A DNA stretch of 55,615 nt, filler included, from Basidiobolus ranarum (lineage: Eukaryota), in NCBI GenBank assembly GCA_040143965.1. It is 4 parts of 4 records of this genome, joined end to end, with 100 filler letters (N's around TTAATTAATTAA, not from the genome) between each part and the next. Parts side by side here need not be neighbours in the genome. Positions count along the whole stretch, not along the records: positions 1 to 13,848 come from JASJQH010007331.1; 3 more parts are not named here. One strand, given 5' to 3'. Shown here in pieces: positions 2,439-41,812 of the stretch. How positions within the stretch are numbered: the first letter of the stretch is position 1; every line of letters starts with the position of its first letter. Below the pieces are notes generated by a model. It ran no database searches. It was not told where the DNA came from and was given only the letters and a program-made list of their open reading frames with translations. The position numbers and the translations under genes are program-made.

Positions 2439-3443
2439 GATTTTTTCAGGATTAGGTGAAGAGAATATGGAAATGATATGTAGAAAAGCAAAACTTGGAC
2501 ACGGACAAAGACGTTATTTATGAGTGCTCAGATTTACGAAGGCGCTACGGAAATGAAAAGGGTAGAGAATAGTCGATTGATTATTATTCAATTAATCTAC
2601 AGCTGGTAATTGATTTAATGGTTGACAAATGTGCTTGATGGCGTTCAATCAATCTATTACATCATCACTCATTTGGTTACACTTGTAACGCCATGTACTA
2701 AATCGGTAATTACTTTAAGTAATCCGTATGTTCTTTTCTGAGCTTCCTAGGTTAAATCTGGTCTATAAGAGCTATATTGCTGTTTCTAAAATTTAGCTTG
2801 ATTCGCGATTCGCCAACCCTATTTAGACTTTACACGAAGTAGTATCCCTATCCGCCAAAGTAGAATGGTGTTGATCCTTACAAAATCGCCTACAGAATTA
2901 GCATACTACCAAATCGCACATCTCTAGATCTTGCGTAGGTTCAATTACTCGCATGTATCCGGTAGGATTGTTGATTATTCTGGAAGATTTATTTACTGGG
3001 TCAATGCTCATTTGTCGAAATCCAGTCTTCTTGCTGCAATGAAGCCAATGCTTCTGGATAGTCAAGAATCTATTGAGAATTGCATTATGAATGGAGTATG
3101 ATGCAATCCAAAGAAAATCCCGGTAAACGATCAGCGTTATGCCAGATGTAGAGGAATGATCTATTATGAATCTGCCGTTAATGTCACGAGTTGCAGAAAT
3201 TTATGAATACAATAATTGTTTCATGCAGCTAGGATGTTTTGACAGAATTCACCTATTCATCCCTTCTATTGTTAAATATACAATTGTTCAGAGAAAATAC
3301 CCGAAGTGAATGAGTTGGGTAAAACCTAGAGATAATTTGCCATGGACCCAATTTTTCGCAACTCTATTTACTTATCGATACTCTGTCAGTAGGCTTCTAT
3401 TTTCAACACCATCTTTCCAGTTTTCTACTCTTCGGTGTATGCG

Positions 3444-4906
3444 ATGTTCTCCACTTCTTTGATTTTATTTCTAAGTATATTTGCATTTGAGTGGTTGTCA
3501 GTAAGTTGTATTCAACGTCATGGTTTCACGCAAATTTGCTATGATCACCCGAGGCCCTGGCAAAAAAACCACAAAGTTCGAGTGGAATGTGAGTTGGAGG
3601 ATACTGGTAAAATGCGGGGGGATAGAGTGTTGTCCCCTGGTGAATCCACGATGAAATTGCAGTTTCAATGCAATGCCGCCTCAGATAAATGTGAAAAAGT
3701 GAAAGCTACTTTTGATACTGCTTTTCAAATCATTTCGAATGTTGTGGTGTTTCGAGAACCTCTCATCGTTAATGCCTCTTTTATTTCTTTCTGTAAAGAG
3801 TTCAAAGAGTGTGACACTAATTTTCGTATACTAGGTATCATATTCTATGGTAGTTCAATTTACATACATAAGCATATTAACAATACATCAGGAAGTGCAG
3901 GTCCTGCTAGAACAATCGTCCTAATAGACGAGGATGGTAGAAGGAGAGCATTTCCACAGGCACTACTGAAACAGAAAGGTTATTCGAAGCATCCCAAATT
4001 CAGTTCTTCTGATATCATAGCCTCATTTAATTCTGATGTGGACTTCTGGTTTAAGGTAAATGGGTTAATTAAATCGCTCCCAATTAAAGTCATTATATTC
4101 ATCTTTTGATATAGGACGAGGGAGCAATCCGACGGAACCAAAGCGACTTTTTATTTGTTATAATTCATGAATTGATTCATGGCTTGGGAATCTCCTCATC
4201 TTGGATGGACTACATCCACGACACAGCGCAAGCATTGACTCCAAATATCCTGGTATCAACCACTCCCGAGCTTTATATATTTGGGGGCTTTGTAGAAAAT
4301 ATGTTTGATAAATTTCTGGTCGAATACCCATCACTAAAGCCATTGACAGAGACAGTAAATCTTCTAGATCAGTTTGCCAGTGGACCTGGGACGATCTTCA
4401 ACAATGAGGAGGAGTTTAATAGAACCTTTTATTATTCACCACAGTACAAACTTTCCTCAAGAATATGCAAGTTAGCTACTACCCCTCAAAGTTTGGCATT
4501 TGTGCCTCGAAATGCGACCATGAACGAGCCTATTATCCTAGAAACAAGTCTCAGTCCGTATATTCCTGGAAGCTCTATATCTCATTTTGACTTTAGAAAA
4601 TTTACCAATTCTCCAGACTTTTTAATGCGATTTATGGAGGATCGTGGGGTTTCTTTAGAAGAAGATGTTATTCGCGGTGGAAATTATGTAGGTGGACCAA
4701 TCGGCCCGCAGTTGACTAGTATTCTCGAAACGTTAGGATATACCATAAATCCTAACCCGAAGCCATTGTCAGAGTTCGTCTCCAAAGTCTCATCGCCCAG
4801 TACAAGTGGGGAAGGGGGTGTTTGCGTTCCTTACCTCTTCTATCTTCTCACACTATATACTTTGTACACATATCTGGAGGATACTATGAATATCCTACAG
4901 CGATAA
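3444..4906 (+). CDS. Secreted/surface zinc metallopeptidase-like protein (HELIHGLG); C-terminus altered by an insertion
   Basis: Signal peptide, with introns near 3835-3891 and 4056-4113. The spliced product reads ...DFWFK|DEGAIRRNQSDFLFVIIHELIHGLG, then LETSLSPYIPGSSISH and a hydrophobic tail. Confidence 0.75.
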
Positions 4907-5117
4907 CTGAGGAGAAAGAGAGTTTGATTCTTGACTTTCCTTTTGCTTGCCTTTTCTTTTACCTGGCCTTTGGGGCATAAATCGGTCAGGACAGGTACCT
5001 TTTTCTCTAAACGAAGTTAAGATGTGACGGAAATTCAGTACTGCAGCAAGGTCTCGGTTCCAAAGTCGTCTAATGCTACTGGCTGGCGTGGTCTTCAAAC
5101 ATTCGGTGTACACATAT
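4863..5117. repeat. 11-bp direct repeat TGTACACATAT (4863-4873 and 5107-5117), target-site duplication
   Basis: The two 11-mers are identical and the bases outside them differ on both sides. Removing the insert plus one copy restores a clean host C-terminus ...LYTLYTYGLNLYNHL*. Confidence 0.85.
4874..5106 (-). mobile_element. 233-bp Fanzor (TnpB-like) 3'-end insertion with 11-bp TSD; putative omegaRNA module
   Basis: The minus strand encodes ECLKTTPASSIRRLWNRDLAAVLNFRHILTSFREKGTCPDRF (last Zn-finger Cys plus the RuvC-III WNRD motif typical of fungal Fanzor1). It is flanked by the exact direct repeat TGTACACATAT at 4863-4873 and 5107-5117, with a terminal hairpin at 4874-4900. Confidence 0.85.
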
Positions 5118-6150
5118 GGCCTTAATTTATACAATCATTTGTAGAATTCCCGAATTTTTATGCAAATTTCCTTGATTCTCCATATTTATCAGATTTAGAT
5201 TGTTATTGATGTTTAATGTAATACTAAATAGATATTTTCACCGCATATCCAAAATGCATCAATGGTACACTAATAATTTCTCAATGAAGAGTTTTGGTGG
5301 TACCAGCGAGTTCATAGAAGCAGGTATTCCTCAAAGAGTACCCAAAGAATCGTTGCTTTACAACCAAGTTTCTGTGGAGTTGGTTTTCTAGGAGTGCAAA
5401 AATAAACCTATTCATTTCTTTGTCATTACCAGGAAAAGTGTATCATATAGATACGGTTTGTCTATAAAGCTTGATATCCTTAAGAATTTATTGAAAATGT
5501 AATGATTTAAGATACATCATAAGTTTATATATATAAATAGATATGACAGGTATTTATGTTATAAGCCCGAAAAGTGACAATAGGCCTAATTATCCTGACC
5601 AAATTTAACTGATGATGATTACTTGAAGCTCAAACTTAGTACTCTCGAAGCACTAGTATTGGCCTGATTTTAAAGTTAGTAGTTCGACTCAACTATTGAT
5701 CAATTACGGGTCCAGTCTTAGTTTGCGATGCATACACCTCATATAACACTTGAATGCTCAAGTTCATAAAATTTCCATAGATTACGTAAATTTTGCTTCT
5801 TAGCAATTTTTGTTAAATCAGATCGAAGAATGTTCAGGTGAAACTTAAAATAAATTTATCTATACACTGGCATCTTTGAGGTTGATATACACTTTTGTGA
5901 TCTCTATGTAAATTGGATGACATCTTTAAAATCCAAGCTCCATCTATGAATGAACAAGAGAAATAAACAGCATTGAGTCGGTGGTAAAAACAAATAGACG
6001 AATATGATATGAGAAAACTCAAGAATAGATTTGTAAAGTTTGACGGCTTTTACACCAAGGTCAAGCAAAAGAAAGGTGAGTTCAGAAGTATATATGTGAA
6101 TTTGAACAAGTGAAGGTATGTAAATTTTACTCACTTTTTTAGATACTAAG

Positions 6151-13848: not shown

Positions 13849-13948
13849 NNNNNNNNNNNNNNNNNNNNNNNNNNNNNNNNNNNNNNNNNNNNTTAATTAA
13901 TTAANNNNNNNNNNNNNNNNNNNNNNNNNNNNNNNNNNNNNNNNNNNN
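13849..13948. other. Artificial contig linker (N run with TTAATTAATTAA)
   Basis: 100-nt N spacer with a six-frame stop sequence; genes are truncated on both sides. Confidence 0.98.
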
Positions 13949-27789: not shown

Positions 27790-27889
27790 NNNNNNNNNNN
27801 NNNNNNNNNNNNNNNNNNNNNNNNNNNNNNNNNTTAATTAATTAANNNNNNNNNNNNNNNNNNNNNNNNNNNNNNNNNNNNNNNNNNNN
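27790..27889. other. Artificial contig linker
   Basis: 100-nt N spacer with TTAATTAATTAA. Confidence 0.98.
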
Positions 27890-41712: not shown

Positions 41713-41812
41713 NNNNNNNNNNNNNNNNNNNNNNNNNNNNNNNNNNNNNNNNNNNNTTAATTAATTAANNNNNNNNNNNNNNNNNNNNNNNNNNNNNNNN
41801 NNNNNNNNNNNN
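41713..41812. other. Artificial contig linker
   Basis: 100-nt N spacer with TTAATTAATTAA. Confidence 0.98.

Follow-up and report, generated by a model that had tools for sequence, protein, structure and literature searches.

Insert and Target-Site Duplication

The window analyzed here is a 55,615-nucleotide stretch made of four joined parts of the genome of the fungus Basidiobolus ranarum, and within it we found a 233-bp segment (4874–5106, minus strand) that reads as the 5′-truncated, 3′-terminal fragment of an element carrying a gene for Fanzor1 (Fz1), an RNA-guided nuclease. The fragment lies antisense to a host gene, within its last codons, and is flanked by two exact copies of the 11-mer TGTACACATAT. 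The left copy (4863–4873) is 3′ of the insert on the element (minus) strand and the right copy (5107–5117) is 5′ of it; they are the only two matches in the window (0.02 expected; two or more copies in 0 of 100 shuffles), and the repeat cannot be extended by even one base on either side. In a tblastn search, 12 Fanzor1-type proteins matched the window at 4890–5125 only (E < 1e-4), and no second copy of the 233 bp was found in the window.

The two ends of the insert are not inverted repeats of each other. Compared in register as inverted repeats they are identical at 12 of 40 positions, and a search for inverted pairs found no end-to-end inverted repeat at the insert. Poly(A), an A-run or a simple-repeat tail is likewise absent at the 3′ end of the insert, which terminates ...GTATCCTCCAG right at the target-site duplication (TSD). 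At the 5′ junction five bases, CCGAA, have no assignment, and of a would-be 5′ terminal inverted repeat (TIR; CTGGAGG...) the insert has one base at most. On the element strand the TSD reads ATATGTGTACA, is preceded at its 5′ copy by the four bases GGCC and contains the palindrome TGTACA. A derivation of this TGTACA from the parent element, in which sibling proteins have the residues C-T (TGT ACN) 15–18 nt upstream of the break, was considered and rejected, as it covers only 6 of the 11 bases and needs a frameshift. An earlier reading made from the sequence alone (hereafter the sequence-only reading) had described the repeat pair, the minus-strand open reading frame (ORF), its TAG and a terminal hairpin, all of which we recovered base for base, and its statement that the ends lack both inverted repeats and poly(A) is borne out by the comparisons above.

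An exact 11-mer repeat is by itself no more than chance in this window: 27 pairs of 11-mers lie 50–1000 bp apart, where 100 Markov simulations gave 24.2 on average. Because such pairs occur at chance frequency, the significance of the repeat rests on its position. The copies fall at most 5 nt from the 5′ border of homology and about 11 nt from the last base confirmed by sibling sequences at the 3′ end; 5 nt separate the right copy from the first unquestionably Fanzor-derived base (the Cys codon at 5101–5099), and the left copy abuts the hairpin. Coincidental placement of both repeats has an estimated probability of ~1e-4 (~225 offset pairs × 4.9e-7 per 11-mer, given the base composition of the window), a figure calculated by hand and not the output of a tool. 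We are highly confident that a Fanzor1 tail was truly inserted here with definite borders, as the sequence-only reading had proposed from an 11-bp TSD, and TGTACACATAT does occur only twice, at the borders of the insert. The target before insertion would have read as a single TGTACACATAT followed by GGCCTTAATTTA.

Fanzor1 Coding Remnant

The minus strand of 4874–5106 translates as E-C-LKTTPASSIRRLWNRDLAAVLNFRHILTSFREKGTCPDRFMPQRPGKRKGKQKESQESNSLSPQLSL-stop, including ...RRLWNRDLAAVLNFRHIL...GTCPDRF.... The frame opens one codon before a Cys codon, TGT (5101–5099), and continues for 69 codons (4898–5104, minus strand) to a TAG at 4897–4895, 21 nt short of the end of the insert. Its landmarks are the last zinc-finger Cys (5101–5099), the motif WNRD (5062–5051; NRD 5059–5051) with the RuvC-III Asp, and a basic tail, PGKRKGKQK. 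Fanzor1 proteins are described as having a C4 zinc finger followed within 5–50 residues by the RuvC-III RD (Bao and Jurka, 2013; PMC3627910); of this motif the insert has the last Cys and the NRD, the other three Cys lying beyond the truncation. Among solved proteins the window peptide is nearest to the Fanzor1 of Parasitella parasitica, PpFz1 (9cf0), which it matches with E 7.2e-5 (residues 2–43 to 1212–1253, across LWNRD.AAVLNFR.IL). A sibling protein from B. ranarum, P0004, matches 9cf0 with E 2.4e-7 and the Spizellomyces Fanzor1 SpuFz1 (8gkh) with E 0.0045, and the Coemansia relative P0002 matches the same two structures with E 5.5e-94 and 8.6e-38, respectively. The segment is thus the C-terminal end of a Fanzor1 gene, comprising the final Cys of the zinc finger, the Asp of RuvC-III and the basic tail, and the Fanzor/TnpB-type identity put forward from the sequence alone can be narrowed to a Fanzor1 C-terminus by the PpFz1 match.

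A complete RuvC domain (D, E, D) is absent: the remnant has 69 codons only, and no further similarity to Fanzor was found in the window at E < 1e-4. Judged by its sequence, the copy is a gene fragment that encodes no nuclease and is not itself a member of the Fanzor1 proteins. A local Pfam-A scan returned no family for the window peptide or for P0001–P0003. A precomputed Pfam entry, PF26935.1, is listed in the protein database for the long Fanzor1 relatives, for which the local Pfam-A gives none, so that the two copies of Pfam differ.

Sibling Proteins and the Two Ends

The closest relatives in the protein database are four short B. ranarum proteins with 75–91% identity to the window peptide: P0001 (191 aa; 91%), P0004 (79 aa) and P0005 (64 aa), both at 84–85%, and P0006 (64 aa). 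Coemansia proteins of 636–667 aa are 58–72% identical over the tail. Both siblings that reach the 5′ break read across it: P0004 continues as CTNQN-CLKT, and P0001 as ...RYTNQN-CLKT with ~85 mid-Fanzor residues upstream. P0005 and P0006, which begin downstream of it, give no information on this border. The 5′ border of the insert cuts the coding region of the zinc finger and is neither an RNA border nor a domain border. The sequence-only reading had seen here a defined module, a description that does not fit a break inside zinc-finger coding across which P0001 and P0004 continue.

At the other end, P0004, P0005 and P0006 extend into the terminal region of the element. The C-terminus of P0005 resembles that of the window ORF (...PPQLSL), and P0004 (...SVIAAGHP) and P0006 (...SVIAVGYQ) continue across the first arm of the hairpin in a second frame, in which the window has SVIAVGYS-stop. 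This second frame spans 4884–4958 of the minus strand (...GKSRIKLSFSSVIAVGYS-stop) and agrees with the way P0004 and P0006 end; the window ORF and P0005 are in the other frame. The use of two frames at the sibling C-termini implies small indels (~10–11 nt) in the basic tail of the family.

The five Basidiobolus-type copies (the window and the four proteins) all keep the tail, and none is full length. A search with P0001 for a full-length Basidiobolus Fanzor gave seven proteins longer than 336 aa among 1393 candidates, all from Mucorales, Coemansia or unnamed metagenomes, which is weak evidence that there is none; in the search with the window peptide, P0001 itself (191 aa) was the only named Basidiobolus protein among the three relatives longer than 122 aa. 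Overall, the sequences suggest a pattern of common 3′ ends and differing 5′ extents, drawn from few sequences and at the protein level only. We consider it probable that the insert is a product of truncation rather than a defined module.

P0001 has a feature of its own. In this protein a mid-Fanzor stretch (...LKRKFGEDAV) is fused directly to the region of the last zinc-finger Cys, skipping the RuvC-II and zinc-finger stretch of the full-length relatives, and it may be either an internally deleted copy of the element or an artefact of the gene model.

Terminal Hairpin and omegaRNA-Like Part

On the minus strand the insert ends in a 27-nt hairpin, CTGTAGGATATT-CAT-AGTATCCTCCAG (4874–4900), which stops at the junction of insert and TSD. 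It has a 12-bp stem with one U-C mismatch and one G-U pair, and a CAU loop. Its RNA fold, at −9.5 kcal/mol (z −3.06), was matched by 1 of 200 shuffles, and the two strands give z −3.23 and −3.33 as DNA. We regard it as a candidate for a transposition signal, for the last stem of an omegaRNA, or for both.

An alternative stem-loop, CCUCAG-UUAUCG-CUG(U)AGG, lies at 4894–4912 (minus strand) and is SL1-like. It cannot coexist with the full terminal hairpin, since CUGUAGG is part of both, and with −7.9 against −9.5 kcal/mol for the minimum free energy it is a close suboptimal structure. The 10-mer AGTTATCGCT is common to the minus strand of the window, where it occurs once (0.13 expected), and to the PpFz1 omegaRNA, a 71-nt sequence in Table S3 of Xu et al. 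(2024; PMC11423790). When the two sequences are compared by eye, they share the hexaloop UUAUCG within the 10-mer stem-loop and a 6-bp stem, and the stems differ yet are compensated: PpFz1 has CCAAAG/CUUUGG and the window CCUCAG/CUG(U)AGG, with two pairs changed on both sides. Both also have ...AUCC(UC)CAG just ahead of the flank. In contrast, the PpFz1 omegaRNA as given in that table is without the long terminal hairpin of the window, and the PpFz1 ORF ends six residues past the aligned region, where the window ORF has a 26-residue basic tail instead.

The insert as a whole shows no such structure: the 233 nt have a z-score of +1.06, 171 of 200 shuffles folding at least as well, and Rfam gave no match over 4600–5400 at E up to 1. 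Fanzor1 omegaRNAs are given as 150 nt for GtFz1, 90 nt for SpuFz1 and 75 nt for PpFz1 (Xu et al., 2024; PMC11423790). The sequence supports an omegaRNA-like part of about the last 40–50 nt only, the other ~185 nt being coding sequence. Of the omegaRNA-sized 3′-end module proposed from the sequence alone, therefore, the omegaRNA-like 3′ end gains from the stem-loop that shares AGTTATCGCT with PpFz1; its size does not hold, as known omegaRNAs are reported at 75–150 nt, only the last 40–50 nt or so are alike and the full 233 nt fold no better than shuffled sequence.

The omegaRNAs of Fz1 run 14–15 nt past the element or TSD (PMC10432273; PMC10711439), and the Fanzor1 guide RNA scaffold is described as including the TSD, which may be as long as 12 nt, with ~15 nt beyond it (Yoon et al., 2023; PMC10711439). 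By analogy, a hypothetical guide region would comprise the 3′ copy of the TSD and ~15 nt of read-through omegaRNA (AUAUGUGUACA + AAGUAUAUAGUGUGA; 4848–4873, minus strand). If the minus strand is transcribed, an RNA with an SL1-like scaffold could arise, its guide being AUAUGUGUACA-AAGUAUAUAG.... Separately, in a 73-nt fold the TSD and adjoining flank bases pair with each other (UGUGUAC/GUAUAUA, 7 bp; 4853–4871, minus strand) directly after the terminal hairpin, which may be a low-complexity accident.

Host Gene and Window Context

The host gene (3393–4906, plus strand) encodes a secreted HExxH protein, and its last exon (4115–4906) ends in a hydrophobic C-terminal tail. The database protein P0007 (392 aa) is 100% identical to the host product over 253 aa and ends ...LYTLYTYLEDTMNILQR; its last ten residues, LEDTMNILQR, and stop are the antisense of the inserted hairpin region, codons 4874–4903 and the TAA at 4904–4906 coming from the antisense strand of the insert. 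When the insert and one repeat copy were deleted in silico, the host frame ended ...LYTLYTYGLNLYNHL*. We infer that the insert was exonised in the hydrophobic, glycosylphosphatidylinositol (GPI)-signal-like tail and that it replaced a putative original ending, GLNLYNHL. The relatives P0008, P0009 and P0012 of the host protein end in a plain hydrophobic tail. The best non-self relative, P0008, is 63% identical and its C-terminal tail differs, so that this orthologue gives no empty site from which the pre-insertion sequence could be read. A conserved HELIHGLG motif marks the large family of the host protein (395 representatives, E up to 0.001), for which local Pfam gave no name.

The window is otherwise ordinary gene-dense fungal DNA. 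Pfam families were assigned to 12 of the 18 long ORFs that were scanned, among them TLDc, SH3, MCM, forkhead and peptidase S9. Runs of N occur as three pairs, 44 bases each and 12 bases apart, at 13849–13948, 27790–27889 and 41713–41812, i.e., every ~13.9 kb, and look masked rather than like assembly gaps.

Origin of the Insert

Most likely, the insert keeps the last 69 codons of the nuclease gene together with the true 3′ end of the element. Our preferred explanation, to which we give an even chance, is that the segment is a dead-on-arrival, 5′-truncated copy of a longer, TIR-less Fanzor1 transposon, made by 3′-anchored, one-ended insertion. Such an insertion would be anchored at the 3′ end of the element, the site of the terminal hairpin; copying or strand transfer would run inward from there and break off early, in this case inside the zinc-finger coding region, and the free end would then be joined to a target opened by nicks 11 bp apart, fill-in of which would produce the TSD. 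Precedent comes from Bao and Jurka (2013; PMC3627910), who describe CRe-1/2/3 of Chlamydomonas, Helitron2-type Fanzor1 elements, as often 5′-truncated with an intact 3′ end, the truncated copies having TSDs of ~7–19 bp, and refer to “one-ended transposition”; the Helitron2 elements are reported to have a hairpin in their last 20–30 bp. The same authors list MCi-2 of Mucor circinelloides, an unclassified Fanzor1 family that lacks TIRs and has “fuzzy” 5′ ends and an 11- or 12-bp TSD of the pattern ATAATTNNNN(N). A one-ended transposition product was also one of three options offered by the sequence-only reading. We infer the mechanism and, with it, which element was the parent, in what direction copying ran, what enzyme acted and whether the copy has any activity today, because the basis is one locus, four sibling proteins and published precedent. 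At most, the copy would be an accidental “ghost” guide locus, usable by a Fanzor made elsewhere if the minus strand is transcribed.

Several observations weigh against this explanation. No Rep/helicase, Crypton, MuDR, reverse transcriptase or other transposon protein was found among the 18 window ORFs. The 5′ TSD of CRe elements is described as lying just after TTTT or a T-rich tetranucleotide, whereas the window has GGCC, and the fixed positions of the MCi-2 TSD pattern (ATAATT) are matched by the window (ATATGT) at four of six (Bao and Jurka, 2013; PMC3627910). The sibling evidence consists of four annotated proteins from one related genome, and gene calling on small contigs may distort it. 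In wider scans no relatives were found: a metagenome scan with the peptide alignment gave 191 pattern matches and one with an 18-nt pattern of the 3′ end gave 54 loci, none of them Fanzor-similar by tblastn (longest DNA match 37 nt at 86%), and there were no relatives among 66 pattern matches in contigs of prokaryote genomes or 22 in viral contigs. Finally, either one-sided gap repair or retroposition would leave the same picture at a single locus. The only locus to come from the wider alignment, L055 in the viral contigs, matches just the low-complexity tail, without the Fanzor core, and was rejected.

Abortive one-sided gap repair is an unlikely rival. Here a full cut-and-paste Fanzor1 element (e.g., of the MuDR type, as in Mucorales) would have inserted with a long TSD and been excised, and repair of the break from a sister copy would have advanced inward from the 3′ end alone, over ~230 nt, before end-joining to the other TSD flank. 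Non-autonomous DNA transposons usually arise as internal-deletion derivatives. Gap repair would also keep both TSD copies and leave a single element end, as found, and would be compatible with the five unassigned bases CCGAA at the 5′ junction; Fanzor1 elements with MuDR-like TIRs and 9-bp TSDs are moreover reported from Rhizopus, Phycomyces and Mucor (ROr-4, PBl-3, MCi-4; Bao and Jurka, 2013; PMC3627910). Against this, the 3′ end is a hairpin and not a recognizable TIR arm, hardly anything of a 5′ TIR is present (at most that one base), the reported TSDs of MuDR-type Fanzor elements are of 9 rather than 11 bp, and the MCi-2 and CRe precedents account for missing TIRs without extra steps. That gap repair leaves both TSDs in place, and that 5′-truncated Fanzor1 copies with TSDs of 7–19 bp have been published (PMC3627910), undercuts the argument of the sequence-only reading that TSDs hugging the fragment speak against simple decay of a full element. 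Retroposition, in which a LINE-type (long interspersed nuclear element) enzyme would have used a staggered nick for target-primed reverse transcription of a Fanzor transcript, or of the precursor to an omegaRNA, into a 5′-truncated cDNA with a TSD, strikes us as improbable. It would explain the 5′ truncation and the ~11-bp TSD, which form its classic signature, and the terminal stem-loop is a feature that a “stringent” LINE could recognize. Yet a poly(A) or simple-repeat tail is absent, no reverse transcriptase gene is among the window ORFs scanned, and an omegaRNA of the PpFz1 type (71–75 nt) would give an insert about one third of the observed length. In addition, since Fz1 omegaRNAs are reported to run 14–15 nt past the element or TSD, a copied omegaRNA should carry parental flank at its 3′ end, and the insert instead stops at the hairpin without any.

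A selected guide-only mini-element, i.e., a “ghost” locus that moves as one unit and is retained for the omegaRNA with which it arms a Fanzor produced elsewhere, appears very unlikely to us. The SL1-like stem-loop with its PpFz1 hexaloop and two compensated stem pairs points in this direction, and 134 ORF-less omegaRNA loci are documented in Spizellomyces (Saito et al., 2023; PMC10432273). Those loci are described as keeping both inverted repeats, however, of which the window copy has none; moreover, ~185 of its 233 nt are simply protein-coding and show no surplus of structure, the 5′ end is not common to the two informative siblings, and the annotated Basidiobolus proteins include no intact Fanzor, although this last point is weak evidence. 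The least credible alternative, which we consider extremely unlikely, is that a chance pair of 11-mers surrounds an old, decayed Fanzor remnant and that no insertion with a TSD took place. It draws on the chance-level number of 11-mer pairs within 1 kb (27 vs. 24.2). Against it stand the placement of the copies, at most 5 nt from the 5′ homology border and abutting the hairpin, with the ~1e-4 estimate for such a coincidence, and the plausible hydrophobic host C-terminus that is obtained once the insert and one repeat are removed; furthermore, the protein identity of 84–91% to siblings and the flanks without further Fanzor similarity imply that the fragment is not what erosion has left of a larger relic.

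We offer a further idea as a speculation with very little chance of being right. It starts from the clean insertion, with an 11-bp TSD, of 233 bp that include the omegaRNA-bearing 3′ end only. In a TIR-less Fanzor1 lineage the omegaRNA-coding end might be the sole cis requirement for mobility, and the Fanzor-omegaRNA complex might itself take part in integration, making a staggered cut in an AT-started target and handing over the 3′ end for target-primed copying, so that the nuclease would be the integration endonuclease of the element and not merely a homing helper. Behind this idea is the start of the TSD, ATA; the target-adjacent motif (TAM) of the closest characterized enzyme is ATN.

Significance

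How TIR-less Fanzor1 elements with long TSDs move is a question that has stood since 2013, when MCi-2 was not assigned to a class and no explanation was given for its “fuzzy” 5′ ends (Bao and Jurka, 2013; PMC3627910). A clean copy of 233 bp would confine what is needed in cis to no more than the last 233 bp, and it points to a 3′-anchored mechanism in a second fungal lineage. It also suggests that protein-less, omegaRNA-bearing loci can arise through truncation, besides internal deletion. At the locus itself, the insert rewrote the last ten codons and the stop of the host gene. Knowledge of Fanzor biochemistry is unchanged, and on present evidence the locus adds one more case to a pattern already described. 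What it chiefly offers is a very short copy, which would limit the cis requirement of an unexplained Fanzor1 class to the 3′ end.

Comparison with Known Fanzor Systems

We found no full-text literature on Fanzor together with Basidiobolus, and the comparison is with systems of other hosts. MuDR-type Fanzor1 elements (ROr-4, PBl-3, MCi-4) are unlike the window copy in their 9-bp TSD, against 11 bp here, and in their TIRs, no arm of which is recognizable in the window copy, whose 5′ end is missing. Copies of 5′-truncated LINEs and processed pseudogenes resemble the insert in 5′ truncation, a TSD on the ~10-bp scale and being dead on arrival, but differ from it in that the insert has no A-tail or 3′ repeat and consists of the tail of a DNA-transposon gene that ends at an apparent DNA terminus.

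The sequence-only reading had presented a new guide locus for a Fanzor encoded in trans, a concept in which it was anticipated by the “ghost” Spu-1 loci of Spizellomyces punctatus, 134 loci with an omegaRNA and no ORF, for which a supply of guides in trans has been proposed (Saito et al., 2023; PMC10432273). Like the insert, these loci keep the omegaRNA-coding right end without a Fanzor ORF. They are described, in contrast, as having both 30-nt inverted repeats and a conserved body of ~550 nt and as forming a uniform family, whereas the window copy has one end only and no known twin, keeps 69 codons of the ORF and has a 5′ border that differs from the two informative siblings.

The closest likenesses are with the two groups described by Bao and Jurka (2013; PMC3627910). 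CRe-1/2/3 share with the window copy the combination of 5′ truncation and a retained 3′-terminal region, which in the window is shared with P0004, P0005 and P0006. They also share the length of the TSD, the exact 11 bp of the window falling inside the range of ~7–19 bp, and the presence of a terminal hairpin in the last 20–30 bp (27 nt in the window) without TIRs; their host, however, is a green alga rather than a fungus. Asymmetric terminal inverted repeats and an autonomous partner encoding RepHel further mark the CRe type; the window copy has no 5′ end of the element. MCi-2 likewise comes from an early-diverging fungus and resembles the window copy in its TSD of 11–12 bp with an AT-rich start (ATA...), in the absence of TIRs, in a Fanzor1 gene at the conserved 3′ side and in variable 5′ ends. 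The MCi-2 copies are reported as 7–9 kb long with complete genes, against the 233 bp of the fragment in Basidiobolus.

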